Part shown: in pieces, positions 9,004-35,200 of the stretch | Layout of the letters: each line of letters starts with the position of its first letter | How positions within the stretch are numbered: position 1 is the stretch's first letter | DNA from: Amphiscolops sp. MND2022 | Lineage: Eukaryota | Direction: 5' to 3' | NCBI GenBank assembly: GCA_964187785.1 | Contig: OZ076409.1 | Location: forward strand, 58,158,001 to 58,222,000 | Length of the DNA: 64,000 nucleotides | Notes under the pieces: generated by a model | Seen by the model: only the letters and a program-made list of their open reading frames with translations | Databases searched by the model: none | Told to the model about the DNA's origin: nothing | Program-made: the position numbers and the translations under genes

Positions 9004-9115
9004 ATAATTATTGAACGCTTCTGATTGGTTGAAAATTGAAATGGAAAAGAATTAAATTTGTTGAATTTGTGTGCTACACAGCATCGAACTAATTACGATA
9101 ACGTAGTCAGCTATG

Positions 9116-12004: not shown

Positions 12005-12285
12005 TTAAAACAGTTTAAAATGATGCCATTGTTGATTAGATCTAATGGTCCTAGTCGACCTGTTGTGCATGGAAACATTCACACATGAAACAACTTGCTG
12101 CAGTTCCATTTTAAGGAACAAGGATTTGCACAAAAATTGTGAAATTTAGTTTGTCCTGCTGTCAAACCGATAATCGCCCTTGTGCGACTCAAGGGACCAC
12201 TGCGTTTAAGTTAGGGAATGAGCGGTAGCTAGTTTTTCACCGATCATTGAAGATACTTGTATTGCCGCTCTTTCAGAAACATGTA

Positions 12286-14774
12286 ATGGCTCTTCGTGTG
12301 AATTTAGTCATCGTTAGACACGGCCGTACAGAAGACAACAGTAGAGGCGTTTTACAAGGGCATGTAGATAACCCTTTGGATCATCAAGGAATTATTCAAG
12401 TTAGGGTTTGATTTTTGAAATTTTCTGAACTGTGGCATCGGGCAATGAAAGATGCATTGATCAGAACTTGTGGCTCTGAAGTTTCACTATGACTTTTAAG
12501 AACGGAGAAAGTTTATTCCGCCTCTTAGGATTCGAATCCTAAGATCATCATCCTTGTAAATTAAAAATAGATAGTGGGGAAGATTGGATCAATGAAACCA
12601 CTAAAATGTTTTAGTTGCAAAATTTTTCTGGTGGTCTTCGTTTCTGACCTTGAATAATTCGTTTGATTAGGCATTGAAACTTGGTAGTTATCTCACCAAA
12701 ACAAAGTTCGACTATGCTTATTCCAGCGATCTGAAGAGGGCTCGTTTAACAGCCAAATTAGTTTTGTCTCAAAATGCTTCCTGCCAAGAGTTGCCCCTGA
12801 AAACCGTGAAAGTACTTCGTGAGAGAAATTATGGCATAGCTGAGGGAATGAAAATGACGGAGCTGAGCAAAATGGCTGCCCAAGCCAACAGTAAAATTCC
12901 CGAGTTTGTTCCGGATCAAGCGGAGAATTTACCCCAAATGCAAGAACGGGCAAAATTGTTTTTGAAGTTACTCTACAATACAATGGCCGATAAAACAGAA
13001 ACTACGTGGTGAGAGGTTGTTACCTTTATGAGTGGAAAATTTCTCTTGAATTATTAATGTTTGAACTATTGAGTAAGATGCTGAATCGATCGCTGAATGC
13101 CCTGGTGGTTCCATTCATCTTTTCTTTTCTCCATTTTTACGACTAAGACCAACGAAGTGACAGATTTTATAAGCTGACTTGAACTAACACTAAATGCCAC
13201 ACTACTTCTACTGGCACTTGAGATGGAGGTTAATTAGGTTTTTTGAGGTCCCCTTCTACATTTTTCGGCACTATGCGACTTATCGGAGACCAAAATTTTG
13301 AAAAAAACTGCGAAAACATGGGATTTTTTTCAATTTTTTCCCTCATGCGGGTACTGTAGAAGAGAATACTTGACACTTTGAAGTCCTTTTGCTATTTTTG
13401 AGCCTTAGATATGGCGCCGACTTGGGCCGTTCCCGGCTTGTTATGTTTTTTTTACTAAGGTTAGCGCCACAGTCGACTTTGCTGCCGTCCGTCAATTCCT
13501 GAAAATCTAAAACTTGTGAAATTTTCAATCTCTGTTGAATTTTCTATTTCTGAAACATGAATCGTCGTCGTATCAGAGATTCTGTATCATTGATTCATAT
13601 TTATCAAAAAAATCATTTTCAATTTTTAGTCGGCGCTTCTCGTTAGAAAAGAGTCTACTATAGTGATGGCTTTTTGTCAGTTTTTTTTTGATACACCTGA
13701 AGTGGCCAAAATAGTTCTACCAAGAGTTTTACAAAATCTTAAATTGTATCTGTTGGCCCAGGGAACTGAGCCAAAAAGGTTTTCCTTTTTTCCGCGTATC
13801 ATACAATACCGGGCGAGACTAAAGTGTCCCCCTTTCACTTTTTTTAGGCATTCTGCGATTTTTCGAATTTTTTTCCAAAGGGTCCCCTTTCATTTTTTTG
13901 GAGTTTTGCGACAGAATAGATGTTGAAAGGCCCCCTCCCAGTTTTTTCGGCATTGTGAGACTTTTTTTAAAAATCGGGTGCTGTAGAAGAATAATTTGAC
14001 AGTCCTTTTGCTATTTTTGAGCCTTATATATGGCGCCGACTTGGGCCGGTCCCGGCTTGTTTATCGTGATGTGATGAAACACGGATCTTTCTAAAGGCTG
14101 ATACACGGTTCATTATATCCATTCTTATATACGGTTTTACATCTGGTAATTTACATCTGGTTTTACATCGGTTTTACATCTGGTAATTTGGCATTTGAGT
14201 CAATTTGTTTGAAAATTTGACGTTGATCTCGAACTTTTTTGGTGTTCCTCTGATAGTTTCGAAGAATGTACTCATCACAGCTCCAAAAGTACTTTTACCA
14301 AAACAGTATAACCAGTCTAAAAGCGAGTTAAAGAAAAAAGTCTAAAAGCAAGTGATTTTCCATGGCCTAAAAATTTAGCCCCTATGATTAACAAAACACA
14401 GTCACCATTTGATGAACTTTTTTGTGCTCAGCATTGAAGATCCTAATGAGGATGACGAAGTTGAACTAGAGAATGCTCTTGCTTCAATCAGTGAAGAAGA
14501 AAAGAAAAAGTTGAGTCCTAAGAAAAACCCAGCGTGGAAGAAGACCGGTGGTGATTGCACCTGTTTAGTAGTCAGTCACGGAGGACTAATCAGGGAACTA
14601 CTCAGAGTAATTTGCTCAGAGAACGACGATAGAGTAGAGCTAAATCAGAAACGAAGACTTCTTGGATGTCCGGGCAACACTGGATTCACGCATCTTAGTT
14701 TAACCATGAACAATGGAACTGATTTCAAACTTGATAAAATTCATATTTTACATGAAACTTGTCATCTGAAGTAG
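12286..14774 (+). CDS. TIGAR: TIGAR-like fructose-2,6-bisphosphatase (histidine phosphatase / phosphoglycerate mutase family), ~264 aa
   Basis: Exons 12286-12399, 12671-13008 and 14432-14774 join in frame across GT-AG introns (795 nt). Motifs: VIVRHGRT (catalytic RHG), LQG, AYSSDLKRA, LRERNYG, LVVSHGG. Exon 1 is not in the ORF track and was read directly. Confidence 0.85.
13135..13442 (+). mobile_element. HINE-like element, head-deleted (TIGAR intron 2)
   Basis: Body matches the 7931 copy; full tail gcgccgacttgggccgttcccggcttg. Confidence 0.65.
13623..14061 (+). mobile_element. HINE-like element (TIGAR intron 2)
   Basis: Head agtcggcgc plus hairpin; tail gcgccgacttgggccggtcccggcttg. Confidence 0.7.
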
Positions 14775-15121
14775 CCGAATTTTGTACTGATTAGTCGTGA
14801 CTTGATGTTCATGTCTTACAAAGAATTATGATAAGCAAACTCGAAACTAAGTTGCGACAACTACAGTGACTAATTTTTCTTTAACTGAGTTAACTTACAG
14901 AAGTGTGACCATTGTATTTGTTCGATTAAGATGGTTTTAGCAAACGGCTAACGCTTGAGTTATATTTAAGATTCGATGTAGAATATCATAGTTTGCTTGG
15001 CAAGCTTTGTTATGCAGTGGTCGGTCAGCTACGTTTGTGTGTTCGCAGAGAAATTAGTTACTTTTGTGTTAGTGGCAACAATCTGACTACAAGTTCCGAA
15101 GCTGGGTTTCAGTTCTACAAA

Positions 15122-18100
15122 ATGAGTGTTGGAGGATCAAGACCCAAATCTGTGTTCTATATCAACCCAGCCGCAACAGTTCCTGCATTGCCCACCAATG
15201 GAAATAGCCAGAGTGTAAAAGTCAAACCTCCCTCGTTACCTCGGTCCAGTGCCGATGAAAAAAGTGAAGGCCATTGCAAAGCAAGCTTCACCAATCAAGG
15301 ATTCCGATATGAAGGCACTATTTTTGTAACTAAGTTCAGAGTCGTTTTTGTGTGCGATGATGACAAGATCGACGGAGATTCTGTTTCCCAAACAGAGAAG
15401 GAAACATCACAATCACAACGACGGAATACCAATTGCGGACAGAAGATGAGTACCTTCTACGACGAGTATCTAGACATTCCGTTGGCTCAGATTCGCAGGC
15501 TTTACGTTGTACAACAGGAGCCTGGGGCAAATGCACCTCCTGCTAACAATACAACTGGTGGATCTTTAGCTGCTTCCGGCAGTCCAACAAAGCCTAATTT
15601 AAAATGGCTAGTTTTCCCATCTCAATATGAGCCATTGATGGATTTTTTGTATATACAAATCGAAAGCTCCAATTTCAATTGCTGCACTATTTATTTTGAA
15701 AAATCACAGACCTCATATCAACAATTTCTCAATTCCTTAGCTTCGCGCCTTACGAATTCAATTCCCAAGCAGTTTTTATTCATGAACGTTGCCGACACTC
15801 TTACTCTTTCCGATTTGAATTACTCACCTTCAGAAGCGCAGAAAACTTTTGTGCGTCTGCAAGATTGGATCTCCTTTTTCCAGAACTCATTCTTAATCAA
15901 CATTCTGAAAGATAAACAAAAAGCCGGAGAGCATGAAAACGTTTGTTCCGTTATTGCTAGTGCAATATTCCAGTTAGTGTATTCCAAAAGTTTTTCCCAC
16001 GCCGAAGTTGTCAATTTTCCTCAGTATTGTTTCACCATCAAAAACGATAAACAATTTGACAAGTTTTTCTTGCGGCACACAGAGAGCATGTCAGGGGATG
16101 CGGCTCCAAATTGTTCCGTCAGGGCCGCCAAAAGTCCAATAAAACAATTCTTGCAGCAAATCAAGGACAGACTCGAAGTCATTGAGGTCACTGAACAATT
16201 GACCTTTTCCCCTAAGGCGCTTTCACAGGGTTATGAATTGCTGGAGGAATATTTACAGTTCAGATTTGGAAGGTCGCGGAAGTTCTTCAAGCTGTCAATC
16301 AAACTTTTTAGAACAATTTTTGAGAATTCTGGCTGGCTTTTAGCTGTGAGCAATTGTTTGAAATTTGCTACCACAGTGGCGGACAAGTTTCAGAAATCGA
16401 ACGAGCGAATTTTCATACTCAAAAATGCCGACGGTGTCCCTCTTGGAGTGTCGTGCATTTTGAGCTCCCTGGTAGAAGTGTATGTATCGCCTAGATGTCG
16501 TACAATAGATGGCTTCATCGAGATGATACAAAGGCAATGGGTGGCAGCTGGTTTTGACTTCAAGGAGCAGTTTCCTGGTTTCATGGAGAAGAAACCCAAA
16601 TGCCTGGTTAGAATTATTAGTGTTCCGTGATTATTAGTCGGCGCTTTCGTAGAAAAAGCAGACTATAGTAGTGACTTTTCTTTAAATTTTTTTAATACCT
16701 ACAAACTGAGATTTTATAAGCTGTTGCTCACTAACTTATAGCTTCTACAAATCAAAATAGGTGAACCCAGCGGTCGCGGGTGCGAGTCTCTGCTTCAGTC
16801 AGAAATTTTTTCGTGCATTTGCAAAACCGGACGAGACTCAAGTCCCCTTTTGATTTTTTTTGCTTTGTGAGGTCCCCCCTTCAATTTTTCGATATTTTGT
16901 ACCACTTTTCGGTAATTGTGATATTTTTCAAAAGGGTCCCCTTTTACAATTTTCGGCAATTGTGATATTTTTCATTTTTCGTCTTAACCCTAAATGACCT
17001 AAATGTCAAAAAATTGGATTAAAAAAATTTAAATCATCAATATCTCCACAACTACGCGTACCAGAGAAACAAACTATAGCGCGTTTGAAAGGTCTGGTAT
17101 TGGGCTTTCATTTTGGTCAGGTGAGCCCCTGTCACCGCGCGCCCCCTCCTTCAGAATTTTAGTTTCTTTTTCCGGTACTACCGCTTAGCGGCAGTTCCGC
17201 ACTTCGTGCGGCCAACTGAGCGGGGGCTTGTATTAACAACAAAATATTATTGGGATTTGTTGCGTAGGAACTTGATGTGCAAGTGTACGGGGTTGGTTTT
17301 TGCCATGGGACAAGATTTTTTGAGAAAACTGGATTTCGCCAAAAAGTGAAATTTAGAAAAAAAACAATTCGTGCAAAAAAACTCATTTTTCTCAAATTTT
17401 GGAGATATGCCATTCAAACCAATTTAGGTACCAAGGAATTGTTAGAAAAAACTGTGCTAGAGAATATGGACTACTGGCAAAACGGATTACAAATTGAAAA
17501 AAAGGTATGTGACTTTCAAGTACCGGTGGGTCGTTTAGGGTTAAAGTTAGGTCCTCAGCACGCTATATCCGAATATTGTTTTTTTTTGACGAAGCGTTTT
17601 GCGGGGATTCGGGGCTCCTTATGGTTTTCGGCACTATGCGACTTACCATCAAAAAAATTCTCTTTAGGTTTTTTGAAAGCCTCCAGTTGGAGAAAAATTG
17701 TTTTCGAGTCTTATGCGTATCCCTTCGTGTATCTTGTATCTTTCGGCACTGTAAAGTTGATGAAATTTTGACAATAGTGTCCTTTTTGCATATTTAAAAT
17801 ACTTTATTTTTTTGAACCTTGGGCGGGGCGCCGGCTTGGGCCGTTCCCGGCTTGTTTTATATTAAATTTTGAATCAGCTCAAGTGGAAAACCGATTTAAC
17901 TGGAGTTTTTGATAAGTGAGCATTTTGTTGGATCTTTTCCAAACGCCCCGTAATTTTCACGTAACTTGAATTTCGTTGGCTAAAATTTTTTCAGCTAACC
18001 TTTTGAATCAACTTTATTCCGAACATGTAATAATTCCGGTCACGTTCAATTGTTACAGAAGCGGTTTCTGGAGGACAAAAAAAGTTCGATTGCTAGCAGC

Positions 18101-20048
18101 AAACGAATGACAAAAAATCTTCTCAAATTTGGTACCACCGTCAATCCGAGCGACGAGCAAAGTTTGACTAGAACTCCGACACCTTATTTCCTCGTTTTTC
18201 TCGACTGTATTCATCAGCTCACGCGCTTGTATCCAACCTATTTCGAATTCAATTCTCCATATTTGTCTCAAATCTGGAACTTTTTGCTCTCTGGAGTCTT
18301 CTCTGATTTCCTCAGCCCAAAAAGTGTGTCATTGAAGCCTTCGTTGTGGGAATGCATCGCAGAGTCACCCAATGCCCATTTGTTCAGGAACCCTTCGTAC
18401 TCGGTGGACTTCGTGGGCGATGACATGAGACCGCAGCTTGATGCCAGAATGTACTGTTGTGCCAATTTAGATGTCTGGGATGATCTCTTCTTCCGCTACC
18501 ACATCGACTGCTCTACTGTCAAAGTGTACATTGACGAGGAGAACAACCAGAAACCTGTTTTGTCCAACAACAGAAAGTTCTCTCTAATTCCGCCTCCCAA
18601 CATTCTAGAACGCAACACTTCGTTCGATTCCTCACTGCAACGCGTCTACGAGTTCATGGATGTCATTAAGCTTCAATTTGATGACGTCGACAGTGAGTGG
18701 GTGCAGCCGAAGAGGTCTTTCCATTCGGACGTTAATCCCAGAAGCTTCGCTCGAGTGGCATCTTCTATCGAAATTTTGGATCTCCTGGTAAGAAATTTTG
18801 CTGTATACAAGTTTTGACACCGTTACTCAGCGAATTAGCGGCCGCCGGGAATGTTTTTAGCACTTTTGTTAGCAATTAGCAGAAGCTAAAAGATTGTCCA
18901 AATTCGGAATTTCCTCAGAAAATACAGGGAGTTCCGAAATGAATTTCGGAAAATTCCAACTGCAACACTTGTAAAACTCACGCAGTATGAGAAATTGTAG
19001 CCTTTTCTTGCAAAATTGAATAAAGTTATGATTGAATTTTGAAACACATTTAATAGTTTGAAGAAGTTTTTCATCGAAATAGCGATTTACCGATAAGCGA
19101 AAAAAGCGATGTCATAACTCAGCTGTTTACTCTGACTTTATTGATGATACTGGTAAAATCTTGTTGGGAAATTTTTTCTTCTTCATTTGGTGACAATTTT
19201 AATTTCACGCCTCAAATTTATATATTTTTTACCATTTCAACCGAAGATCATTTTCACTTTTAATTTTACTCAAAATTATAATACGCGCAAAAGCTATTAG
19301 AAGATACTTTTTGCTTCGGGTTTGATTTATTCTTTTTTTTGTGAACCATTCGTAAAGAACGATTTCAGATTCGTGCAACACTGGTACAGTTCAAATCCTA
19401 AATGTACTCCTGGATCATTAACCTGGGAATTCAAATAATAATCCCCGCGCAATGTTGTGGATCAAAAATAATTAAACCCACCCCTCTTATCAAGACCCCT
19501 ACTAAATTTTCACTATATATGAGCAGGTTTTTTGCGAAAATAGCTTCCGAAATATGGAACGACGAAGTCTTCGTCAATGAGAAGGCAGTTTTGCCTAAAA
19601 TGCATATTCTTAACTCCTATACACATTACTGTTTACCAACTGAATTCAAGCTGTAAACGTTTAAATTCTTTTAAAATCAAATCTCTGAATCCAGACCCCC
19701 TCTTTTATCTGGATCCCCAGAGTATTAGTGTAACCCACACTTCTCGAGCGACGTCTGGAAATATTTCTCTTCGCCAGACTGAAGTTGTTGGTGTTTCAGG
19801 AGTCAGGCGATGAGGAAGACTTGCCAGATGGGTCTGCCTCCAACAACCTTGAAATCGCCACTAACAGATCAAACAGCAGGGAATCCACTATCTCGGAGAC
19901 GGACTGGAGTAAGTTCTCACTGGGGGGCGACAGCAGAGGACCATCAATTCGCTTGACAGGCGAAAGCAAAGAGGCACTGGACTTGGAAAGCTCCACAGAA
20001 ATGGTAGATTCTAGTGAATTGGTCATTATCAAAAGTACTCAATTATAG
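15122..20048 (+). CDS. Myotubularin-related pseudophosphatase (MTMR10/11/12-like), ~820 aa
   Basis: Exons 15122-16606, 18059-18787 and 19800-20048, all phase 0 (donors gttaga, gtaaga; acceptors ttacag, tttcag). PH-GRAM-like EGTIFVTKFRVVF. Myotubularin motifs FENSGWL, SLVEVYVSPRCRTIDGFIEMIQRQWVAAGFDF and PYFLVFLDCIHQL...FEFN. The catalytic HCSDGWDRT is absent. Exon 3 is inferred; without it the ORF stops at 18817. Confidence 0.8.
16631..17856 (+). mobile_element. HINE-like element carrying a piggyBac MITE (MTMR intron 1)
   Basis: Head tagtcggcgctttcgtagaaaaagcagacta; tail gcgccggcttgggccgttcccggcttg. Confidence 0.7.
16988..17540. mobile_element. piggyBac-like MITE family B (nested in a HINE-like element in MTMR intron 1)
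   Basis: TTAA-ccctaaatgacc ... ggtcgtttaggg-TTAA; 12-bp TIR with one mismatch. Confidence 0.8.
19387..19653. mobile_element. Possible degenerate Tc1/mariner-like MITE in MTMR intron 2
   Basis: TA-cagttcaaatcc ... gaattcaagctg-TA; weak TIR. Confidence 0.3.
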
Positions 20049-20844
20049 AAATCTATCCTTAAATATATATTTTTGTACAGATCAATCCTAACCAGAATTT
20101 AAATTATTTATTATTCCTTCATAAAACATGCTGAGCTAGACACCAGGAGCAACCTGAAGAAAAATTTGGAATCAAACGTTTTATTCCTAACGAGTTTGTG
20201 GTCTTCCGAATTATAACAATCCCATGTGAGGGCACAGTGGCACCCCGTAGACGTAACCTTTGATGCATGCACGAACCACTCAAGCCGTCCGGTTATTCTC
20301 ATTTGATTTTTATTGCGTCATTTCTGAATTAGAAGTATATCCGCAAAATCTCTTGTAATTGATATTATGACGGCGAGACTCATGAGTGATAGAAATTCGC
20401 TCATAGTAAACCTCGCTCTGAGGCTGAGAACTTTTCGCTTATTCTGCTTTTTAAAGCAACCACTAAACTCTAGCAGTCGCTAATGGGCAAATGTTACTAG
20501 AAATTTGATCATTCAAAATTTTAGAATTTCTTTTAAAGTGCCAGCCATTGTGTAGTGAATCTGATAGTAAAAATCAAAGATTTTGTTTTTCTTGTAATTC
20601 AAATGCCGCTAAGCAGCCGCTAATTTGATTTGAGCGTCGCTTATCCGCTACCGCTAAACTTGCATTGTTCCTTGGTGGCTTCGCTGTTTCAACAAGATGC
20701 CAAAAATGTCGATTCACTATCAGAAGTATCTGTGCGTCCGAAACTTTCTGATTCTTGCGGCACTGGCTCCCGTTTTATGTCCCTGTTTCTTGTGCATTTT
20801 TCATTTCATTCCTGTGAAAAGAAAAAAATCAGTAGCCAAGCCAT

Positions 20845-21075
20845 AGAATACAAAAAGCTAAGACACTAGATTTGGCACCGAAAGTTTTCATAACGCAATA
20901 TCTTTCAATTTATTCATTTTACAAACGTCTCAAATTTTGATTACTGCGACATTTTTTGTTACAATTTCATGGTATTTTAAGGACTTTTGGAATTTCCGAA
21001 ATTTACTACGCAATACCTTGAAAACTACTGGTCAGAAAATTCCCTGGATCATTTTTGTAGCCTTGAAACACCCTT
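20845..21075 (+). repeat. Older dispersed repeat, similar to 40135-40395
   Basis: Shared cact-gatttggc, cgcaatatctt, aaaactactggtca and tttttgtagc-ttga motifs in the same order. Confidence 0.5.
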
Positions 21076-21128
21076 CAACTTTTCTATGGAACCCTTATTC
21101 TATGAAACTCGAAAGGGGTGGATCACGA

Positions 21129-22628
21129 TTTTTAGTCGGCGCTTTCTTATAAAGAGCAGACTATAGTAGTAACTTTTGAAACCGACGAACTGGCAGATTT
21201 TATAAGTTTTATGAGCTGGTGCTCAGTAACTTGTGACTTTTACTGTCACTTGGCACAGAGGTTGATCCGTATTTTTTGAGGTCTGAAACAGAAGGACGTG
21301 GGCACTTGACAATTTTTTTTATGCTCGCAAAAGTAGAGGGGAGACCAAAGGATCCCACCTTCGGTTTTTTCGGCACTACGTGATTTTTTCTGAAGTTTTT
21401 TTTAAATAGCCGCCCTTTGATTTTTAAAAGAAACAGGTCAATTTGCGAGCTAAAAGCCACCTTAGATTTTTTCAGCACTATGCGACGTATCGAAGCCATT
21501 TTGTTTGGGAAAAAAAGAATTAAAAGCATTCAAAAACGTTTTGGATTTTCTGTTAACGAAATCCGTTTCTCAATTCTTAAAGGTGCAATCGTTGGTTACT
21601 TTTAGGGCCTGTGGGACTGATGAGAGTTTTCTCAGTACCTGTGGAAAGGAGCTACGGTGTATCGGCACTATGTGACCTTTCTTCAAAAGCTTTTTTGGTC
21701 AAAGGGTACCTACCCCTTCACTTCTTAGTTTTTTTGGCTCGAATTGTTTTTTGCGCTTTTAATTGTTTTGCGAATTGAAGGGTCTCCTTTTGGGATTTTT
21801 GTCATAATTAGACTTTTTCCGGAAAGATAAAATCAACATTTTCCCCCCAAAAAATGGGATTTCTGATGTTTCGAGTTAGAGTAAAAGGTTTTTCGAGTCT
21901 TAGGGGCATTGCTTTGGGTATTTTTAGTCGGCGCCTTTTCCCTTAAAGAAAAAAGCCCGACTCTTACAGTGGGTAGTTTTTGTTCAGCTGACAATCTGAC
22001 TCTGAATGGTCCACTTTTCTTACAGTTCTTACTATCTTACAAATTCTTACAATTCTTACTTAGCTTACGAAGTAGTATTTTTACATCATCTAAGAAACTC
22101 AACGGGGGCCAAAGGGTACTCCCTTAGAGTATTTTCGGCTCTGTGAGACTTGAAAAATTTTCACTGAAGCGTCCCCCCTTCAATTTTTTAAATGTTTTCC
22201 GACAGAATGGATGTTGAAAAATCCCAAAGGGTCCCGCCCCTTTCAGTTTTTTTGGCATTGTGAGACTTTTTCGGATTTTTTTTCACCAAAGGGGTCGCCC
22301 CTTCATTTTTTTGTTTTGCAACAATGGATGCTAAAAAATGCGAAAGGATCCTGGTTAGCGGGCACCTGGCGCACCAGTTCCGTCATTTTGGTTTCTCGTG
22401 AGTTTGATACTCTTTTTGTGAGTTTGATATTTCGAGTTTTTGACACTTTCATGTCCTTTTGCTATATTTGAGCCTTAGATATGTCGCCGACTTGGGCGGT
22501 TTCCGGCTTGTTTGTTTTGAAAGTTAGATAAAAACTCACAATACTGTCCCTCTGCATATTTAAAAAATATTTAAAAAACTTTTTTGAAACTTGAGCGGGG
22601 CGCCGACTTGGGCCGTTCACAGCATGTT
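21129..22628 (+). mobile_element. HINE-like element with a second complete copy (21921-22512) nested inside
   Basis: Two heads (21129, 21921) and two tails (22512, 22628). The outer body resumes after the inner tail, as judged from the uninterrupted copy 25215-26065. Confidence 0.7.
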
Positions 22629-22689
22629 TGTCATTGTTTTTGCTTCAGCAAGGGCCTTCATTGTTCGAGTTCTTGTGTACATTGGAGTG

Positions 22690-24113
22690 TTATAGTCGGC
22701 AGGCGCTTTTCCATTAAGGGAAAAAGCCTGATTATTACAGTGACTAGTCTTTTATCGGAGCTTTTCTAGTGAAAAGTGCCCGATTATTACAGTGGCTTTT
22801 TTTCGTCAGACCACAGACCTCACCCTGTATGTACCACTATTTGTGCACTGTGCACTTTTACCAAAAGTACTTAGTACTTGATTTTGAACGCATCCAAGGC
22901 CTCTAACATCAAATACAAAACCACTGCAAACTTTTTTGTCACTTCCCCCTTTTCGACTTTGTGAGACGTTTTGTCGAAATTTTTTTTGATGTCTCAGGGC
23001 CCCCTACATTTTTTTGATATTTTGCAAGAGAATGGTTTTTAAAAGATCCCAAAGAGTCCCCCTTTTACATTTTTAGGCACTGAGGCTGTTCAAAATTTTC
23101 CGTCCGATATGAGGTTTTCTTAACCTCGACAGTACACCGAGAAGTTGAAAAAGTGACAAAAAATAGCGAAGAAATTTTCAAAGCCTCATTTCTCCACGAA
23201 TAATAGCGACAGCTCAAATCGGTTTTCTGCTCCTGAAAGCCCTTTATTTACCTAAGCTTTCAAATGGACACTAGTCAGGCTGGGAGTTGGCGCCACTTTT
23301 GGGGTGAGAGCGCCACCCCGGCTTCGCCAGGCTTTTCAAATGACACTAGAACTTTTCCCTGAAGCCTCAATAAAAAAACTTCTATATGCGGTTTCAATGG
23401 TGGCAAATTGTGTTACTAGAGAGTGACAGTAACTTAGCAAACAGTTGCTGTGTTTTTGAGAAAAAGGTAATTTTCTGAAAAGTATCTTTTTGCAAATTTT
23501 CACTTTTTTTCTAGTTACCTTTTTGCCGGTGGTTCGGAAAACAAACTATATTGACACAAATTACAACTCGCCCCAGGTAGTCCAATAGATTGTTGATTAG
23601 TTTTCCTATGAGCTTTTTGCGTTCCGTAATACTTTATTGATTGTGAAAAAATCGCTGTCCTCATTTGGGGACAAAAGCACTGTCGAGGTTAATATACATC
23701 CACCATAGATTTTTTCATTCCTATCCGACTTTTGGAGGTGGAGGTTCGAAAATATTGCGCCATATCCGAATTTTTGACGTTATAAACGAACTATATTGCG
23801 TTTTACTAAGGAGGAAGCGGAGGTTCGAAAACAAACGCTCCCATGTGTCTCTCAGTACGCTATATGCGAACTATTGACGTTATATCCCAAGTAATTTGCG
23901 TTTTACTGAGGAGGAGCCGTAGGATCAAAAAAGCGCTCATATTTGTCTCAGCACGCTACATCTGAACTTCTAAAGCGTTTTCTGAGCATCAAAAGGCACC
24001 CTTCGGTGTTTTGAAAATGTTTTCTGAGTTTTTCATAAAAAACGTCCTGGGAATAATTTAAAAACATTGAGTTTTTTGAGCCTTAGGTATTGCGCCGACG
24101 TTCCCGTCTTGTT
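22690..24113 (+). mobile_element. HINE-like element with double head, nested piggyBac MITE and ~98-bp internal duplication
   Basis: Heads near 22690 and 22750; tail gcgccgacgttcccgtcttg. Confidence 0.65.
23124..23688. mobile_element. piggyBac-like MITE family A, copy 2 (nested in a HINE-like element)
   Basis: TTAA-cctcgacagta ... cactgtcgagg-TTAA, with a perfect TTAA TSD. Confidence 0.85.
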
Positions 24114-25050
24114 AATCCTTTTCCAGATGATAATGTTCCATCCATATAATTCATATAGAAAATCTCAACTGGAAGTTTTTTTTCCAAATTTTGAATTTTG
24201 TTCTATACTCAAAAGATAGTTTCCTCCACAGAATTCAATGACGAAAACGTTAAGTTCGTAGCATACGTCTTTGAGAGGTTTTTCGAAAACTGTGCATAAA
24301 ATTAATGTTGATAAACGTTAAAAAGGTGTTTCTGATTTCGATTTATCATATTTTTCACAAGATTAAAAAATGTTCGTTTTCAACATGATCTTCGCTGTCA
24401 GTCTGAGCTTGCGACAAAATTGAAAATTATTGAGACATCATTAAAATCTTTCAAAATCCTTTTAATAGTTAGATGAAGATGACTGTGAAAATAAAAATAG
24501 TTGTACCTCTTCTTCGAGGACACTTCAGGTAATTAGGACTGAATCCAATTGTACCGCTTCATCTATTTTTTTTCTAATAATCAATGGAACTCGTCCGTAC
24601 CTGAAAATAGTCTTAGAGCAAAGTTATTGCTACGCAATAATGCCCAACAATGTTCTGCCTACAGAATCGCATTTTTTACCAAGAAAAGTATTGAAAAACT
24701 TCAGTCGAAAAACTCAGAAAAAAATCAAAAGACTTAGCACAGGGACCGCGAAAAATCCGCTCTACAAAACACACTTGTGAACTTGAACGGCGAGTATGTG
24801 AAAGAAGACGCGACATCAAAGAAACTGAATGGTATAATAAGCTTTGGATTCACGAAATATTCATTTTACTTCAAGTCTGTCAAAAAATGCATGGAACCGC
24901 AACTTTTTGGGAACAATTTCGGACTCCAAGGTAACTCACGAATCTGGTCTCTGATGTGTGTACATGATTGCAGTACATCATTTTTGGAAATGAGAAGGAA
25001 CTCAGCACAAATACTAACGAGTGTTCTGCTGAAACTGTGCTTAGAAAATG

Positions 25051-25158
25051 AGTTCACCCGAAAACTTTTCTAATGAAACAATTTACAGTTCACCCGAAAA
25101 CTTTTCTAATGAAACAATTTACAGTTCACCCGAAAACTTTTCTAATGAAACAATTTAC
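25051..25158. repeat. 36-bp tandem repeat, 3 copies
   Basis: (agttcacccgaaaacttttctaatgaaacaatttac) x3, perfect. Confidence 0.9.
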
Positions 25159-25214
25159 CTCTCCTTTCGAGATGAAGGACTTCCAAAAAAGCATGAAGCC
25201 GAAAACTTTTCGAC

Positions 25215-26065
25215 TTTTTAGTCGGCGCTTTTCTTTAGAAAAAAGCGACTATAGTCATGGCTTTTCGTCAGTTTTTTTTTCGAAACACCTGAACTACCTA
25301 AAATAGTCCTACCAAAAGTTCTTCAATTTTTGTCATTGCCTTTTGGCCTAGTGGTTAAAGTGGTTAACGCGGATTTTCCGTCGTGGCGGCGAGGTCTAAG
25401 AAGCAATGGTACGTGGGTTCGAATCTCTCACTAAACCAACATTTTTTCCTCTTTCCAAAAGCGTCCCCCTTTAGAATTCTTTCTGCTGTGACTTTTTCGT
25501 CAAATTTTTTTATCATACCTAAACTCACTCCCTCAATTTTCAGCAGAAACAAAGCGTTTTGCCATCATAGATGGCCTATTATAGTTTTTTTGGTACTACC
25601 GAAGTTAAAAAAATTTCGAAAAAATTTCAAGTTTGTTTTGTGTAAAGGAAACATGTTTTCCGAGTCTTGAGGGTGACGTCTTTGTTACTTTTGGTCCTGT
25701 GAAACTAATGAGCTTTCTTAATGATTGTGGAAAAGGCTTTTTCGGCTCCGTGCGTCTTTTTTCTGAAACTTTCATTGGTCAAAAGGTACCCCTCGCTTTC
25801 ATAGCTGATTTTTGCAGGCTAGTTTTGCAGGCTGAAAGCTCCTTTTTCGGCACTATGAAACTTATCCGAAAAATTTCAGAAACTGATTTTTTGTGTTTCG
25901 TTGGGAAAAAGTGGTTTCCGAGTCTTGTGCGTATTTCTTGGGGTATTTTTTGGATCTGAGAAATTGATAAATGTCTAAAAGTAGTCTCGTTTGCATATTA
26001 AAGAAACAAGGTTTTCCATTTTGAACCTTGAGCGGGGCGCCGACTTTGGCCGGTCCCGGTTTGTT
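25215..26065 (+). mobile_element. HINE-like element with tRNA-like A/B boxes
   Basis: Head agtcggcgcttttctttagaaaaaagcgacta; A box tggcctagtgg at 25344; B box ggttcgaatc at 25416; tail gcgccgactttggccggtcccggtttg. Confidence 0.7.
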
Positions 26066-26578
26066 TGTAGTTGTTCAGGCTGCTGGAACTGTCTAAATTT
26101 GAAATCATGAGGTTGGAAAAATTGCGTGATTTAAACGTTTTTCTTAGCTTTTTTTTGAGAAAACCACTAAACAAAAATGGAGTTGAAAAAAAAATGAGAA
26201 ATTGATGCTTCAGGTTTTGTTTTCTCAAAAATTACCAACGCTTCTATTCTGAGCTCCGAGATCAAAGATCGAAAATTTTGTCAATTTTTGTTTAAAGTTT
26301 GTCTTTTAAAGAAAGTTATCCTGGGTATGAATATTTCAAGTCTCGCTTTTCCGTGAAAATTGAGAGCCGACTGAAAGATTTGATCTAAATAGTTTACAAT
26401 AGAATATCTTGCTATAACTTTTTTATGCCGTGGTCACATTATCTCATGATTTTTCCTCAGGGATTTTTTATAATTGAAGTAATTCCATACCCCGAAGGAG
26501 CCGTTTTTCATTACTTATCTGGTTTTCTGAAACTGCGTGTCAACAGGTGTCGAGGAAAGTTTGCGTACGCTTAAAATG

Positions 26579-26949
26579 ATTTTTAGTCGGCGCTTTTCTT
26601 TAGAAAAGAGTCGACTATAGTCATGGCTTTTCGTCAGTGTTTTTTTAAGACCACCTGAACTGACCAAAATAGTTCTACAAAAGTTCTACAAAGCATTATT
26701 GCACCAAATGGCACCATTTGGCCTAGCGAACTGAACCAAAAAGGTTTTTCCTGTTTTCCCGCGTAACATACCATACCGGGCGAGACCAGAGGGTCCCCCC
26801 TTTCAGTTTTTTTTCGGCAATGTGAGACTTTTTTTCCAAAAAAAATTCATAAAAGGGTCCCCAGCTCACCAATACTTTGACATATTGAAGTCCTTTTGCT
26901 ATTTTTGAGCCTTAGATATGGCGCCGACTTGGGTCGTTCCCGGCTTGTT
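26579..26949 (+). mobile_element. HINE-like element
   Basis: Same head and tail motifs. Confidence 0.7.
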
Positions 26950-27455
26950 GATTTTCATTCCGCGATATCTTTTCCCTCTGTTATACATGTATTTTTTCAT
27001 TCTTCAAGTAGCTTCATTTTGCGATTTAAAATTTTCCCATGTCGCCATTCTGACGTATCAACTTTGTATTAATTCTAAAAAGTTGAGTAAAGCATCTGCA
27101 TTTGCATTGCAGCTCAATTTTGAGAGTATGTTTCTCATCTGTTTTGAGCTGTCATATGCTCAACCCTAAATGGGGATTAAGCCATGCAATTTAATTTACT
27201 TTAGTGCTCTCTGGGGCTATTTTGGATGCAGACCAAGTATAATTGGGGGTGAACCGTTGACAACTCAGCCAATGCTTCACGCAATCACTTTTCATCTGCT
27301 TAAAATTTATTTGTAGACTTCGGGCTCAGAGCTCTGAGAGCACGTAGACCTAGGTCACGTGCCGTTCAACTACTATGTCTCATTCAAACGACGACGCTCT
27401 TGGAACATTTTTTCTCTCATTTTCAGTTGGTCGTGTCTTTTTAGCGCTAAAGCTG

Positions 27456-28004
27456 TTTTTAGTCGACGCGTTTTCCTTTAAGGAAAAAAGCCCAACTATT
27501 ACAGTGACTAGTTTTTTTTCAGACTATTAGACAGCAGAATGTATGCGTAGTTGACACTTTTTACAGAACTACTAAACTACTGGACCGGCAAGCGGAAACG
27601 CATCTAAGTTAGTTCTAAGAGTCCCCTTTCCTTTATTCCATTTTAAACGTAAGATACAGACCCGGACGAGACTATAGGGCCTCCTATGATTTTTTTTGAA
27701 ATTTTTTGTCTCCAAAGGGCCCCCTTCAAGTTTCTTGATATTTTGCAGCAAACTGAAGTTTCAAAATGCTCGAAAGGTCTCTCCTTTTTTAAGTTTTTCG
27801 GCACTATGAGACGAATTCTCAAAATTCTCAATTTTCGTTTTTCGAAAAATTTTGATGTCTCTAAAGGGTCCCCCTTAATTTTTTTTATATTTTGCAACAA
27901 ACTGGACTTTCAAAAAGCCCAAAGGGTCCCCACTTTTACAATTTTAAAAACTGCGCTTTTTGAGCCTTAGATAGAGCGCCGACTTTAGACGTTCCCGTCT
28001 TGTT
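27456..28004 (+). mobile_element. HINE-like element (agacg-ttcc-cgtct tail subfamily)
   Basis: Head agtcgacgcg...; tail gcgccgactttagacgttcccgtcttg. Confidence 0.7.
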
Positions 28005-29214
28005 AGTGAATCATTTGGTCATAAGACCAAACAGGGTTTCTATGAATTATTTAAAATTCTGTGGACTATGAATGCATGGTCACTGAAATTAATCAAGAGA
28101 CTATTGAACAAGAGAAGTTGAAAATTCCAAATGTGAATACTAGATCGTGTAACGTAGCCGGGAATTGCAGCAGTGGATTGTGCAGTGTAATTCTACAAGA
28201 TTCACCACAAGATTCACTCTACTGAATTTTCGAGGTTTTAATTTTAAAAAAATTACCATGCATGCAAGCCTGCAGCATGTAAAAAATTCCAGTAGTCTCG
28301 AAAAATCTACTTGAGATCGACAAAATATCTGTTAAACTTATTCCAAATTTATCTGAAGAGCTTATTATAGAATGGGACTTTTAGTGTAAAATATGAATGA
28401 GTGCTTCATAGTTGTCAGATTGACTTGTATGCTTGTTCTCACTTTGAGAGATTATCCTTATGGCTGTAATTTCCAAAGTTCCGACCATCAGTGTCAAATT
28501 GATTTTTTGCGCCCCGGTGAGATTTCACTTCATCCAGCTTTTACGTCGTCAAAGTCTTGTTGTTTTGGCTAGAACGTCAACTCCACTCAAAAGTTTTGAT
28601 TTAAAAAGGTCCCAAAACTTTCTGGGAAAGAACAGTGCCATCTTTTACGTTCAGACTTTTTTGTATAGACAGCTGAATCTTTGGTCTCAAAGCTTGTATT
28701 CTAGTTCTACAGTGGATCTAAAGGTTGATGTGGTTTTCAAAACGCATCACAGTTATGCAAAACATTCTCGCAAAACATAGTCGCTAAGGTACGATAGTGC
28801 TACTGAACTTATAAGAAGTGTCATGCAATTGAAAGAAGTTAAACATGCGTGTCGAAATAGCTGACTTTGAATGGCTGGCTATTGTCGGCATCAAAACTAA
28901 CTTATTTTAGATGATAGATTTAACAGTAATCACTTCAAATCTGAACGTTTCCACTAACTAGAATGGTAACAACCAAAAGGATGTTCTCGAACACATGGCT
29001 CCTGAGATTGTTTCTGGCAGTGAAGACGGTTTGGGAAAAGCTACTTCTTTTTACCGAAATAAACTTGAAAAATCGTTTACATTTCAATGATCAATCTCAT
29101 TTGAGGTTCACATGGTTTTTAAAAAATGCCTGTGATAAAAAAATGGTATGTAAATATCAACTTAATGTCAATTGGCTTCAAAGCTATATGTAGCTAATTA
29201 ATTCAGAAGTGAAA

Positions 29215-32200
29215 ATGAGCTCGAAATGGCAGTTGGCGAGATCTGTAGCAACGGTTGCCGGAGTATCTTTCCTAACTGGAGTTGCTCTCTATCACTCTTT
29301 TGGCCAACGGGGCAAAAGCAAAAAGAAAGTGGAGAACGACGAAACTCCTCAGATTTTCATAATGTACGCTTCTGTTGAAGGAACTTCGAGGGATTTTGCA
29401 AAGCAATTGTATGATTACCTCACATCAATAACCCAAGGTTAGGTGCAATGATTCACTTATCAATAGTAAAATACGGAGAATATTTACATTTATATTGCAA
29501 TTAGGCTCTGAGCCTTGCGTCATAACCGACACCATCAGTACCTATTTATATAACTTAACCCCTTTGAAGGTGGTCCACACAATTTAGTGGTTTCACGCTT
29601 TCACATGACATTGCGGGGCTTATCTTGTACAGTTTTGTGAAAAAATAAGACATAAAGTAAAATATGATTCAGATTAAGAACTCACAAAGCACTGAAATTC
29701 GTTGAAAATGAGCTAGACAAAAGATTTCTTGAAATTTCATGTAGTTTACAATTATGTTTCATTTTCGGAATTTCATTTTCACTTGTATTAACCTTGTGAT
29801 TGAGTTTGAGGTCTCCATTTTTGACATTTGAAGTGTTTAGACTTGATGTAACATTTGCATTTAATATACCTGAAAGATGATCGTTCACTGATCTCCATCA
29901 GAAAGTTCAAGTTTCTTCAAAACAAACTTCAGGAGACATTGAATCATCTCGGAGAATTACTTCGATACCTAATCTTAATACATGTAGAAAGAATCGATTC
30001 TCAGAGAAAGCGAAAAAAGTGTTCTATAGAGCAAGCAATACTAAGAAATCTTGAAAATAATTAGAAAATCATTAAAATTTCAATTTCAAACTATTTAAAC
30101 ACCAAAAGTTGTGATGTTGTGGATGACTACTCCCCATCCTAATACATGAGAATATCATTTTCAAACTTCGTCATATTTGCTACAGAAACGTAAAAAAATT
30201 CAAAACTAGATGAAATTCCAAGCAACTTTTGTTTTTCCGAGAAAATGCTATTTGAGTTGTTTTTGAGCAATTCTCACTTACTCAAAATTTTAAGAATATT
30301 TCTTCTATCCTGTTTCTTTTTCATAGCACTGTATTTCATCTACCGGCAACCACTGTTAGCGTTGCTTGATGATGATATAAAGAAACATGATTTAAAACGA
30401 ACGAAGCAAGCCGGGAACGGCCAAAGTTGACGCCCCGGTCAAGGTTGGACAGGAGCAAAGTTTTTTATCTATGCAGAGGAACACAATTGTGAAATCTTCA
30501 TCAAATTTACAATGCCTATAATACTCGAAGGTACAAGCTTTTGACTCTAAAAACACTTTTCCCCGACTAGAAACAAAACCATTGTAAATTTTTTCCAAAA
30601 ATCTTTTCCGGAAAAAAGTCTCATAGTGCCGAAAAAGGAACTTAAGCCCGCAAAACGCTTTTTTCAAGCTGAAAACATTTATGAAAGTCAAGGGGTACAC
30701 TTTTAACTGAACAAAAAAGTTTAACCAGGACTCCAAAAAGTGTTTGCCTCTCAGAGAATTTCACAAAATCAAAAATGGGATTTTTTACAATCTTCGATGA
30801 GTCGTATTGTGCCGAATAAAAACCGAACGTCGCCCTCTATGCTCGCAAAACGCTTTGTTCCTGCTGAAAAAAAGGATCACTTCGATTGAAGAAATTTTTG
30901 AAAAAAAAGTCGAATAATGAGATGAAGGGAGCGAAAATTCGTAATTATGCTCTCGTACGCCGAGTTATTGCGATGAAGCGAACGAGTGTTGATTATTCGT
31001 TCGCCGAGAGGCTTGCCTGCATTCAAATGCGATTGTGAAACTCCGTTGACGCTTAGTAGTTATATTTTCTTTGGTCCGAGAAGAATTGAAGGTAGTGTAA
31101 ACTGGTACAGTGATTGTACGCTATTTAATGATCAAACAGGAGCTTTTTGTTATTCCATTCCAGATATGCTTCTATTAATGAACATGAAAGTCTAAAAGCA
31201 GAAATAATACTTTAATATTGTTTTTCGAAAATTGTTTTCTTCGGAAAAAAAGTCTCAAAGTGCCGTAAAAAGAGCATGAAGCTCACCAAATTTTTGTTTC
31301 GGGTCAAGTTCGTTTATGGAAGTAAAGGGGGTACCCTTTGACTAAATGAATTTTTTTCGAAGAAAAGCCGCACTTTGTAGAAAAGGCTGTAGGTCATTTC
31401 CACAATTATTGAAAAACTCACTTCCGTTCCACAGGACCAAACAATTTCGGAAAAAGCACTGAGCGAGCCTGAAGGGCTTTTTTGGGATTATCAGCGCCAT
31501 GCAACTTTTTTGGAAATAATTTTTCAAAAGAATTTGAGCTTTTGTGATGTTTCCAGTGCAGAAAAAAAGCTGTTATCGGTAAATGAATGTAAATTAAAAT
31601 TGAACCAATGAACTTTGAAGCATATAAATTATTTTATGTAATAATAATATACTCTAGGGTACCAAAAAGCTAAAGATACATGATCTCGCTGCCCAGAAAT
31701 TTCAAATTGTAATAAACCCACATAATCAATGGACACAAAAGTCCTAGGAGCAGAACTTTCTCGAATTTCAATAGCAATTGATGATTTTTGTTTTGACATC
31801 AACTTGTGGAATTTTCCGAACATTATCATGCGATGTCTCAAAAAACGTTGTTCGTAACAAAAATGCTTGAGACTGGCTTTTTACCTTTGATTCAGATCTC
31901 TAACTTTCGAATTTAACACTTTCTGAACGCCCTCCTTAAAAATTTAAAAATCGCAAAATGGCTGTTCATTTTTTGGCTGTTCATTTTTCACGATAGTAGT
32001 TTTAGGGCCACAAAATTGATCGGAGATTTTTCTTCCAACCAAGTAGTTTTTGACACATACCGTAATAAAGTTCGGAATTTGCCAAAATTCCTCGTAGTAC
32101 CATGTGATATAACTTTTTGAATCATCATTCGATTTCAAATTAAGGAATATCATCGTAATCATCAAAGAATATCATCCTCCTGGGACTTTTTTGTCCCAAT

Positions 32201-35200
32201 GCGTATTGAAAGTTTTCGCCTGTAATATTAGCTGTCTAGGTTTAATGGTTCCATTATGTATTTCTGCCCGGGCGCGTGTCTTGGAAAATGTTTTTCTTGC
32301 AGGTTTTTCCGAGCATCATCAAAAGCGCTCAGAGCTCATATCTATTTCTAGCTCCATGTTGGATTTTTGTTTTTGCTTGTTTAGAGTTTAAAATGTCGAA
32401 AACTTGTGAAACCGAGAATTTTAATTTCAGGCGTGGAAGTGATTCTTGTAAATTTGGAGAACTTTGACCCGGAGCACCATATTCTGAAGAAATTGGGATG
32501 TGAGAATGTCTTGTGGCTGTTTATTCTACCTTCTTACGACACAGATTCCCATGCACCTCAACCAGCTGAGTGGTTTTCCTCTTGGTTAGAAGAAAGTGCC
32601 AACGATTTTAGAGTCAGTCAGTCGCTATTAACTGGAATGCTGTATGGCTTGTTTGGCGTTGGTGATTCGGCTTATGGCGACAATTTCAACTCTTTTGCGA
32701 AATCAACAGACAAAAATTTAACAACATTGAGCGCGAAGCGTTTAACAGACACCGTATATGGTGATTGGCAGAGTGATATCGCCAAAGCTTTCAACAAATG
32801 GAAGAATGAAGTTTCAGAATGCATCAGGATTTGGATTGACTCCGTATGGGTGAACGAAGTAGAAGCAAAGGAAAATGGCAAATCGGGCTCCTGTGGAACC
32901 TGTACTTCTGGGTGCAATAAGCCAAAGGGTACTTCTAAGAATGGCAAAAAACTGGGTTGGCACAAAGAGTGTAATCTTTCCTTTTCGTGAACTTAAAAAT
33001 AACAGCGCATTTTTCCTGGATACTTGTTTTTGTTTCTTAGCGTTTAGTACAGTGATTCTTTATATGCCGCCCACTTAGTTGATGGAATTTTGAGGAAACT
33101 TAATTAACCAAAAGTTTTGTAAGTCAATATTTTCGGAAACTCGCATCGACTTCGTTCCAACCAACTTCTTTGCAAATGAGCTTTTATCAATTTGAGTAGA
33201 AAAACCCCAATTTTATTCACTCTTAAGACATCTTCAATTTGTTTTTTTTTGGTGTCAACCTTAACCTTAAAGATGCGAATGGCGTAGAGAATGAACACGA
33301 GTACGAATCGTCAGACGAAGAGAACAACGTTTTAAACGATTCTTCGAACGCTGTCGACCTTGAAGACATGGGAGCGCTTCTGAAGAAAGGCTCCGAGATC
33401 CAGGAGGTCGAGGAAGGTGGAGGCGACAACGTGAAAGACATGCTAACTCCTCTCATCCGCGAGTCTTTGACAAAACAAGGATACAAATTGATCGGTTGGT
33501 AATGAATGTAATGAACGTTAATCAACAAATGATTAGACTTGAAGTGTTTCCATTTGTAGTCTTTGAATATTGGATTTAGAAACGCTTAGAAGTAATTGCT
33601 ACAGATCAAAAGTTAAGTCGTCGAATTATGGGCTGCCGGACAGAAAAATAAACTTCAATTCAACAAAACCTTGATTTTAGATTTTAGACAGTCCTCTGTG
33701 AAGAACTGTCCCTTTTGCGACCTTGCTCTGAATCCCGCAGAGCTACTGAATTCTAGGAGATTTTTGCAGATATCAGTTTTTGTATGATGTTTACAAAAGA
33801 GGTTGTAAGGGTTTTATTCAGGTTGACTTAAACTACGAGTTCAAGCTGTCTCGTTAACATTTTTATTTGGCTTTTAGTATCTTTTTAAATGGAAATCAGT
33901 GATTTTAGAATCCAAAATATTTGTAATTCTACCGCTTTCTACAACTTGTTTCTTCTGAGTTTTCGACAGTTTAACTTAAATTGAACAGTTTAATTATCTC
34001 GAATCGATTGCAGTATCAAAGAATTCGTCAAAAACACTGGTTGGAGAATACCCCCTTATGCCTATGTGGATTTCTCTGATTACGCCATTTCTAAAGCACT
34101 TAATAATATTCTTGAAAATGTCTGTACTGCTTGATTTTCCAACAAATCTTTTTTAACAAAAAATCTCTAAATTCTAAATTTAAGTCTATCGTTTAATTTG
34201 AATTTAACGGATTTAATTTTGAGGAATTCGCATTCGATATTTTTTTTCGTGCAGGTTCTCACAGTGGTGTGAAGCTATGTCGTTGGACGAAGTCCATGTT
34301 GCGAGGCAGAGGAGGGTGCTATAAGCACACATTCTATGGTATAGAGAGTCACAGGTGCATGGAGACTACTCCGAGTCTGGCATGTGCCAACAAGTGTGTG
34401 TTCTGTTGGAGACACCACACCAACCCAGTCGGCACTGAGTGGAAGTGGAAGATGGACAGTGCTGACCTCATCTTTCAGGTATCATCTTGACAAATCAATA
34501 TTTGTCTATTCTGGTGAAACTATTCAATATTTTCGTCAAATGAAGGCATCGTCATTAATTCGAGATAAGAGATATTTTATCGCGATGGATATTTTTGAAG
34601 TGTTTTTTTACAGTAATCTTCTCAAACAAGTGATGCCAAAATAGTATTTATTGGCTCTTCTTGATATTTATCTATTGTTTCCATATATAGAAATAGATTG
34701 GTGCATGTAAATTTCATACCGATCATGTCAGTATTAGAGTACATTCCTTACGTTTTTTTAAAGATTGGTGCCATTTCATTGCCATTTTGTCCACTCTATG
34801 GAATCAAAAACTCAAAGCGGCTATCAAAGTAAACAATCTAGATTGATCATCTATGACATGTTTATCGCGTTCCTCAGTGCAAAAGTGTTATTACTTTGTT
34901 TTGAACTAAATGTAAATCGAAAGTTCTTGAAAACCATGCTTGTCGCCAAGAGGGAATACCTTAATTTTGTCGAAACAGTCTGAAATATACATTCAATGGC
35001 ATGTATTGGTATATAGGCCCAAAGTGGTACAATTGGTGGAATTGAGGGACTTAAAACAATCAAACTTATTTGTTACGTTGTGTTGTTTTTCAATTTTGTA
35101 GGGGGCCCTGGAGAATCACTATGCCATGATTAAACAGTTCAAAGGTGTGCCTGGAGTGCTGCCTTCCAAATTCCAGGACGCGTTCACCGTCAAGCACTGT

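Follow-up and report, generated by a model that had tools for sequence, protein, structure and literature searches.

Probable spliced-leader acceptors at three gene starts of an acoel, and leader-capped host mRNAs carried by a long terminal repeat element

Three genes in a 64,000-nt stretch of the genome of the acoel Amphiscolops sp. MND2022 (hereafter the window; contig OZ076409.1, 58,158,001–58,222,000), coding for a TIGAR-like histidine phosphatase, a myotubularin-related protein (MTMR) and TYW1, have a TTCAG motif ending 8–9 nt before their initiation codons. Comparison with leader-capped copies of other host mRNAs, found by searching the 1.07-Gb assembly (where the contig is designated C1), suggested that at least two of the three sites are acceptors for spliced-leader (SL) trans-splicing, with a probability of roughly 0.85. 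Use of the MTMR site appears highly probable, that of the TYW1 site nearly as much so, and that of the TIGAR site likely; that all three are used is a weaker claim, which we still favor. SL trans-splicing has already been published for acoels, namely for Symsagittifera roscoffensis (accessible parts of PMC9911081 and of the preprint 10.1101/2022.08.27.505549) and, as SL addition, for Convoluta pulchra (Table 4 in the accessible part of PMC2481426), and the three sites are further cases of known biology.

The 32-nt leader printed for S. roscoffensis, in which 30.2% of the genes are reported to be trans-spliced (PMC9911081, accessible part), was found in identical form in this genome, whereas reversed controls gave no matches. 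This identity suggests that the two animals are very closely related. Sorted by the last base, the exact copies genome-wide comprised 103 with A (as published), 1,275 with G, and 300 with C or T. The 103 full copies of the published leader are dispersed in the genome and are not SL RNA genes, and among 128 dispersed copies there were 120 with a further A directly 5' of the published leader. When the 40 copies lacking GT are subtracted from the 1,275, there remain 1,235 copies of the leader followed by GT, a number that is an upper bound for the SL RNA genes because two retrocopies also begin with GT. The first 100 listed copies with G lie in one tandem array at C1:16.23–16.43 Mb with a period of 904 bp. 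Among 30 fetched array copies, the donor after the leader was GTAAGT in 29 and GTAACT in one, and the Sm-like site AATTTTTG was present in 29. The 111-nt SL RNA has a predicted fold with stem-loops (z −4.0). An SL RNA gene family of the kind that the original prediction had anticipated, with leader, GT, stem-loop and Sm-like site, was thus found. Taken at the level of the genome, three features of an SL system are present: a gene in which GT follows the leader, an RNA of ~100 nt with stem-loops and an Sm-like site, and one leader on many unrelated mRNAs.

Because the GT donor of the array copies begins one base earlier (AG/GT) than the published S. roscoffensis leader, which ends in A, would require, the leader appears to end in AG one base before its published end, and the final A of the 32-nt sequence is to be assigned to the exon, as judged from these gene copies. 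Behind the leader gene, the 904-bp unit contains a 5S ribosomal RNA (rRNA) gene (Rfam, 117 bits); the Rfam scan of the unit reported 5S only and no matching SL model. SL genes in 5S arrays are known from other animals (accessible parts of 10.64898/2026.01.07.698080, for the C. elegans SL1-5S cluster, and of PMC4233971). As far as that source is accessible, the C. elegans cluster resembles the unit described here in that the leader gene alternates with a 5S rRNA gene in a short tandem unit, whereas the SL1 leader itself is unrelated in sequence. The accessible texts of the S. roscoffensis paper and preprint contain no hit for '5S rRNA' and no occurrence of 'operon'. The SL RNA/5S array and the shifted leader boundary correct and extend the published acoel description. 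As a separate observation on donors, GT followed by T (GTTAG, GTTGG, GTTAA, GTTAT) was as common as GT followed by a purine in the introns examined in the window and in the parent genes described below.

The evidence that links TTTCAG to the leader comes from processed copies of host mRNAs, which we call fossil cDNAs. There are 443 exact leader copies without GT, of which 158 were examined (98 of the 103 with A, 30 of the 300 with C or T, and 30 of the 40 with G). Four of the 158 shared the same upstream sequence; a search with the shared upstream-leader junction gave eight copies, and a search with TRPM gave two further ones, so that the element concerned is present in at least 10 copies (e.g. 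at C7:10.87 Mb and C9:22.57 Mb). The upstream 1.45–1.5 kb of these copies are 98–100% identical. The element was mapped in two copies and has direct repeats of 2.1–2.2 kb, i.e. long terminal repeats (LTRs); the copy that carries an acyl-CoA synthetase also has TG...CA ends with a target duplication of 5 bp, and contains a zinc-knuckle open reading frame (ORF) with a weak DUF1759 match. At a single fixed site, this non-autonomous LTR element carries the leader followed by the 5' part of one of seven different host mRNAs, identified with Pfam.

A parent locus was identified for all seven captured mRNAs, and in all seven the leader junction coincided with an acceptor AG of the parent (Table 1). 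TTTCAG ends six of these verified SL acceptors, and four lie 4–11 nt 5' of the ATG. Introns have been removed in the captured copies of XRN2 (nine introns), acyl-CoA synthetase (five) and WDR36 (two), and also in TRPM; the compared stretches of SLC28 and CSE1L are intronless, and the eIF2A comparison consists of one 426-nt block. TTCAG was found at six of the seven SL sites vs seven of 23 cis acceptors (two of nine in the window, three of nine in XRN2, and two of five in the synthetase gene; Fisher p 0.015). Since the leader joins at TTTCAG acceptor AGs of host-gene parents, TTTCAG a few bases 5' of an ATG reads as the leader junction in this genome. These copies also bear out the expectation of the original prediction that a shared leader would join exactly at such acceptors. 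The XRN2 cargo is followed, in the same reading frame, by a piece of RNase PH (PNPase-like). In three of the seven fossil-verified SL mRNAs, an ATG is located 5–8 nt past the leader and far 5' of the main ORF. One further leader copy that had been considered as a host retrocopy (L250) had no detectable parent and is a decayed LINE (long interspersed nuclear element).

The start-proximal acceptors in the window agree with this class. The positions and spacings of all three sites in the original prediction (9, 9, and 8 nt) were exact when rechecked, and the two cis acceptors that it had listed, at 19799 and 32430, do read TTTCAG. The three genes, claimed there to be complete, were assembled without internal stops and gave the expected Pfam families; for the first of them, Pfam confirmed the histidine phosphatase family, while the specific name TIGAR goes beyond that match and is retained as a label. 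For exon 3 of TIGAR, several in-frame AGs could serve as acceptor, and the best of them was taken. None of the three genes has an upstream in-frame ATG, the His_Phos_1 profile match begins at residue 7 of the TIGAR-like protein, and at each site an acceptor consensus is located shortly 5' of the first coding ATG. As the sites share motif form and spacing with the fossil-verified junctions, they are likely to be ordinary SL sites. The spliceosome would then pair the donor of the leader with the three unpaired AGs, the upstream outron would be removed, and joining would occur at 12277, 15113, and 29207, giving a 5' untranslated region (UTR) of ~40 nt that consists of 31–32 nt of leader and 8–9 nt of exon. 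The outron-acceptor reading of the original prediction is in this way supported for the class, and for these three AGs it is made probable by likeness. A start-stop mini ORF (ATG-TAA, 12281..12288, plus strand) sits between the TIGAR acceptor and its ATG and overlaps the start codon.

A sample of other gene starts, of the kind of AG-to-ATG survey that had been proposed with the original prediction, showed how general the pattern is. Of 69 first-exon candidates of Ras and UBC genes, 18 lacked an in-frame ATG in the first 45 codons and were set aside, leaving 51; removing seven with intron-like N-termini and moving one ATG gave a curated set of 44. Of the 51, four had a TTCAG no more than 12 nt from the start (background 2.0%), and 18 had the broader T[CT][CT]AG no more than 30 nt away, vs 13.5% of 6,721 background ATGs (p 7e-5); in the curated set, the latter count was 19 of 44. 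The excess would correspond to somewhere between one in four and one in three genes, which fits the 30% published for S. roscoffensis. A donor-like pentamer 40–110 nt 5' of the start-proximal Ras/UBC acceptors was seen in two of 22 vs 17.7% in the background, a comparison of low power. Since the pattern is not universal in these starts, three exact sites in a row would be a lucky or operon-related cluster and not the rule.

Several observations weigh against trans-splicing at the window sites. No processed copy was found with the parts queried, i.e. the TYW1 exon searched, the TIGAR 3' exon/MTMR 5' end, and the TIGAR 5' end, and none of the three genes had a match among the 158 of 443 non-GT leader copies that were examined. 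The TYW1 site is ATTCAG and not TTTCAG, and the first block of the TRPM parent is only 90% identical to its captured copy. At all three sites, a donor-like pentamer lies 45–67 nt upstream, at a background of 8.4% each for motifs and a range that were picked post hoc, and short introns exist, the shortest measured being 63, 67, ~70, and 74 nt. As donors are degenerate (GTT, GTC, GCT), the DNA sequence cannot prove that an acceptor lacks a partner donor. Finally, the frame upstream of MTMR stays open for 64 codons, with the AG in phase 0, which would formally allow a further coding exon on that side. A remnant of the leader in the window was also sought, and no match was obtained with up to three mismatches allowed.

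These donor-like sites raise the question of whether two or three of the acceptors are the 3' ends of ordinary cis-spliced 5'-UTR introns (e.g. 12210–12276 and 29146–29206), a caveat of the original prediction that stands, chiefly for TIGAR. The pentamers GTTAGG, GTTAGT, and GTATGT are found at 67, 45, and 61 nt, cis introns of 63 and 67 nt occur elsewhere, a second TTTAG at TIGAR would delimit a 60-nt exon, and TTCAG also ends some cis acceptors, as counted above. Given the shortest introns measured, the spacing at TIGAR fits and that at TYW1 is borderline, but the 45 nt at MTMR are too short, being under every intron measured. Splicing at TYW1 would, moreover, generate an upstream ATG, and the 338 nt between TIGAR and MTMR would have to accommodate the 3' end of one gene together with a promoter, exon and intron of the next. 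Such a pentamer within 110 nt also occurs at one of the seven verified SL sites, that of eIF2A (GTTAGG, 77 nt upstream), and both motif and spacing match the SL class better. We therefore regard 5'-UTR introns as an unlikely explanation of two or three sites; even then, the leader may be joined to the non-coding exon further upstream, as in the acyl-CoA synthetase mRNA.

If the motif were instead an initiator-like transcription start element, the mRNAs would begin without splicing with 5' UTRs of ~10 nt. The MTMR site, TCAGTT, may resemble the insect initiator, but the other two sites read TCAGAA and the same motif is the leader junction in other host genes, and we consider this explanation very improbable. 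Chance, which the original prediction had kept as an alternative because there were three sites, fares still worse, even though the sites were spotted after the fact: of the 1,032 ATGs on the plus strand of the window, 37 (3.6%, with the three sites counted in) have a TTCAG that ends 0–20 nt 5' of them, a share that when cubed gives 5e-5, and start-proximal acceptors are enriched at true starts genome-wide in the Ras/UBC sample. A coincidence with no role in splicing can practically be dismissed.

Trans-splicing at the MTMR site would have a further consequence. TIGAR and MTMR lie on the same strand, and the short gap between them ends in the putative SL acceptor. In the accessible part of PMC8629364, operons of Macrostomum lignano are defined as adjacent same-strand genes <1,000 bp apart, the second of which is trans-spliced; as 338 nt is below that limit, TIGAR–MTMR is an operon candidate. 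We put the chance that the pair is an operon resolved by trans-splicing at slightly better than even, and the same holds for the proposal that the event at MTMR would also free this gene from a dicistronic TIGAR-MTMR precursor. The gap between MTMR and TYW1 is 9.2 kb. In a screen for operons in the DNA 5' of the 44 starts of the curated Ras/UBC set, none of 111 ORFs gave a host Pfam match (one was a reverse transcriptase); since the last exon of TIGAR itself has no Pfam match, that screen is uninformative. The accessible part of PMC2481426 lists acoel operons as '?'.

Table 1. Features of the window (positions counted from its first letter) and leader junctions in the parents of captured host mRNAs.
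Feature	Position	Strand	Motif or junction	Distance	Remarks
Putative SL acceptor, TIGAR-like gene	12271..12276	+	TTTCAG	9 nt to ATG 12286	AG ends 12276; probable use judged from motif and spacing class of fossil-verified SL acceptors
Putative SL acceptor, MTMR gene	15107..15112	+	TTTCAG	9 nt to ATG 15122	AG ends 15112; use probable
Putative SL acceptor, TYW1	29201..29206	+	ATTCAG	8 nt to ATG 29215	AG ends 29206; use probable
TIGAR-like histidine phosphatase gene	12286..14774	+			3 exons, 264 residues; Pfam histidine phosphatase
MTMR gene	15122..20048	+			3 exons, 820 residues; Pfam myotubularin-related
TYW1 gene	29215..36514	+			6 exons, 684 residues; Pfam flavodoxin, radical SAM, wyosine formation
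Candidate intercistronic region, TIGAR stop to MTMR acceptor	14775..15112	+			338 nt; no AATAAA/ATTAAA; no repeats; occurs once in genome
Donor-like site, TIGAR	12210..12215	+	GTTAGG	67 nt upstream of acceptor	With TTTAG ending 12149 could bound a 60-nt non-coding exon (5'-UTR intron alternative)
Donor-like site, MTMR	15068..15073	+	GTTAGT	45 nt upstream of acceptor	
Donor-like site, TYW1	29146..29151	+	GTATGT	61 nt upstream of acceptor	Directly behind ATG; splicing would give a 2-codon upstream ORF
WDR36 parent			TTTTCAG	8 nt to ATG	
SLC28 transporter parent			TTTTCAG	7 nt to ATG	
CSE1L parent			TTTTCAG	4 nt to ATG	
XRN2 parent			TTTTCAG	11 nt to ATG	
eIF2A parent			GTTTCAG	about 293 nt to ATG	
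Acyl-CoA synthetase parent			TTTTCAG	215 nt to ATG	
TRPM parent			TTTTAAG	about 586 nt to ATG	First block 90% identical

Most of the 158 examined non-GT leader copies head LINE-like elements, and a Pfam reverse transcriptase was found in all nine ORFs submitted, which came from eight of 16 long fetched stretches. Long and short leader-headed forms were paired in eight LINE families, leaving out differences of 1–4 bases between copies; the piece lost from the short form ends in TTCAG in six families, in CCAG in one, and without AG in one. Over 4.36 kb, the copies L298 and L299 are 99.6% identical; their 5' ends differ by TTTCAG. These pairs suggest that the short forms are versions re-spliced at a second acceptor. 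Target-site duplications of the leader-headed LINEs were searched for and were mostly unconvincing. Full-length LINEs, with a PHD ORF1 in several and an endonuclease-reverse transcriptase ORF2, were seen to begin with the leader, and in many of them another TTTCAG acceptor follows a short way downstream. In 25 of 128 leader-headed copies, an anti-leader stretch lies right behind the leader and folds into a hairpin; for two of them, L297:303–375 and L295:7820–7880, z was −6.9 and −4.9. In the predicted fold, the hairpin possibly hides the leader's own AG. Retroelement copies that begin with a leader are also described in the accessible parts of PMC12582326, for parasitic flatworms, and of PMC5585692 and PMC12014239, for dinoflagellate retrogenes; unlike those cases, as far as these sources are accessible, many full-length LINE families here have retained, downstream of the leader, either another acceptor or a hairpin with an anti-leader stretch.

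As regards the remaining content of the window, the start of a fourth gene (HCN), which extends past the window, was not located in the 30 kb examined beyond it. The HCN exons are present twice, ~6 kb apart, beyond the window, which is either a local tandem duplication or an assembly artefact, and a Polinton-like element lies in an HCN intron just right of the window (a 1,413-residue polymerase-like ORF, with integrase-like and ATPase-like ORFs recognized by eye). A LINE reverse-transcriptase ORF at 9040–10761 ends at a 200-N gap, ~1.5 kb upstream of TIGAR. A homologue search with MTMR gave one relative (65%), whose record begins ~33 residues in, so that the MTMR start is not tested by it; the N-terminus presumably resembles that of vertebrate MTMR10–12.

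The captured mRNAs can be compared with LTR-mediated retroposition by template switching, as described in the accessible part of PMC5131818, where 'spliced leader' has no hits. There, as here, partial host mRNAs, also as chimeras, are found between the two LTRs of a non-autonomous element. In that account, however, the switch occurs at short similarities anywhere (median 6 bp), whereas here seven mRNAs enter at one fixed site via the whole leader. Taking the window and the element together, we tentatively propose, at somewhat less than even odds, that a TIGAR-MTMR operon is cut by trans-splicing and that the leader serves as a universal homology handle; the LTR element would swap complete 5' ends of trans-spliced host mRNAs into its fixed leader slot by template switching, which would lead to serial gene capture and exon shuffling. 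Image figures aside, no description of the SL/5S linkage or of an operon in acoels, or of mRNA capture via a leader, was found in the open-access literature.

The three sites are themselves ordinary in an animal that would trans-splice ~30% of its genes, and the by-products of their analysis (the leader boundary, the SL/5S array, the fossil cDNAs, the operon candidate and the capture of mRNAs) matter more. From fossil cDNAs, the consensus of SL acceptors can be read without recourse to RNA. If the acoel operon is real, it would bear on the age and repeatedness of operon evolution in bilaterians, and the uptake of host mRNAs by way of the leader would be a concrete link of trans-splicing with gene duplication.

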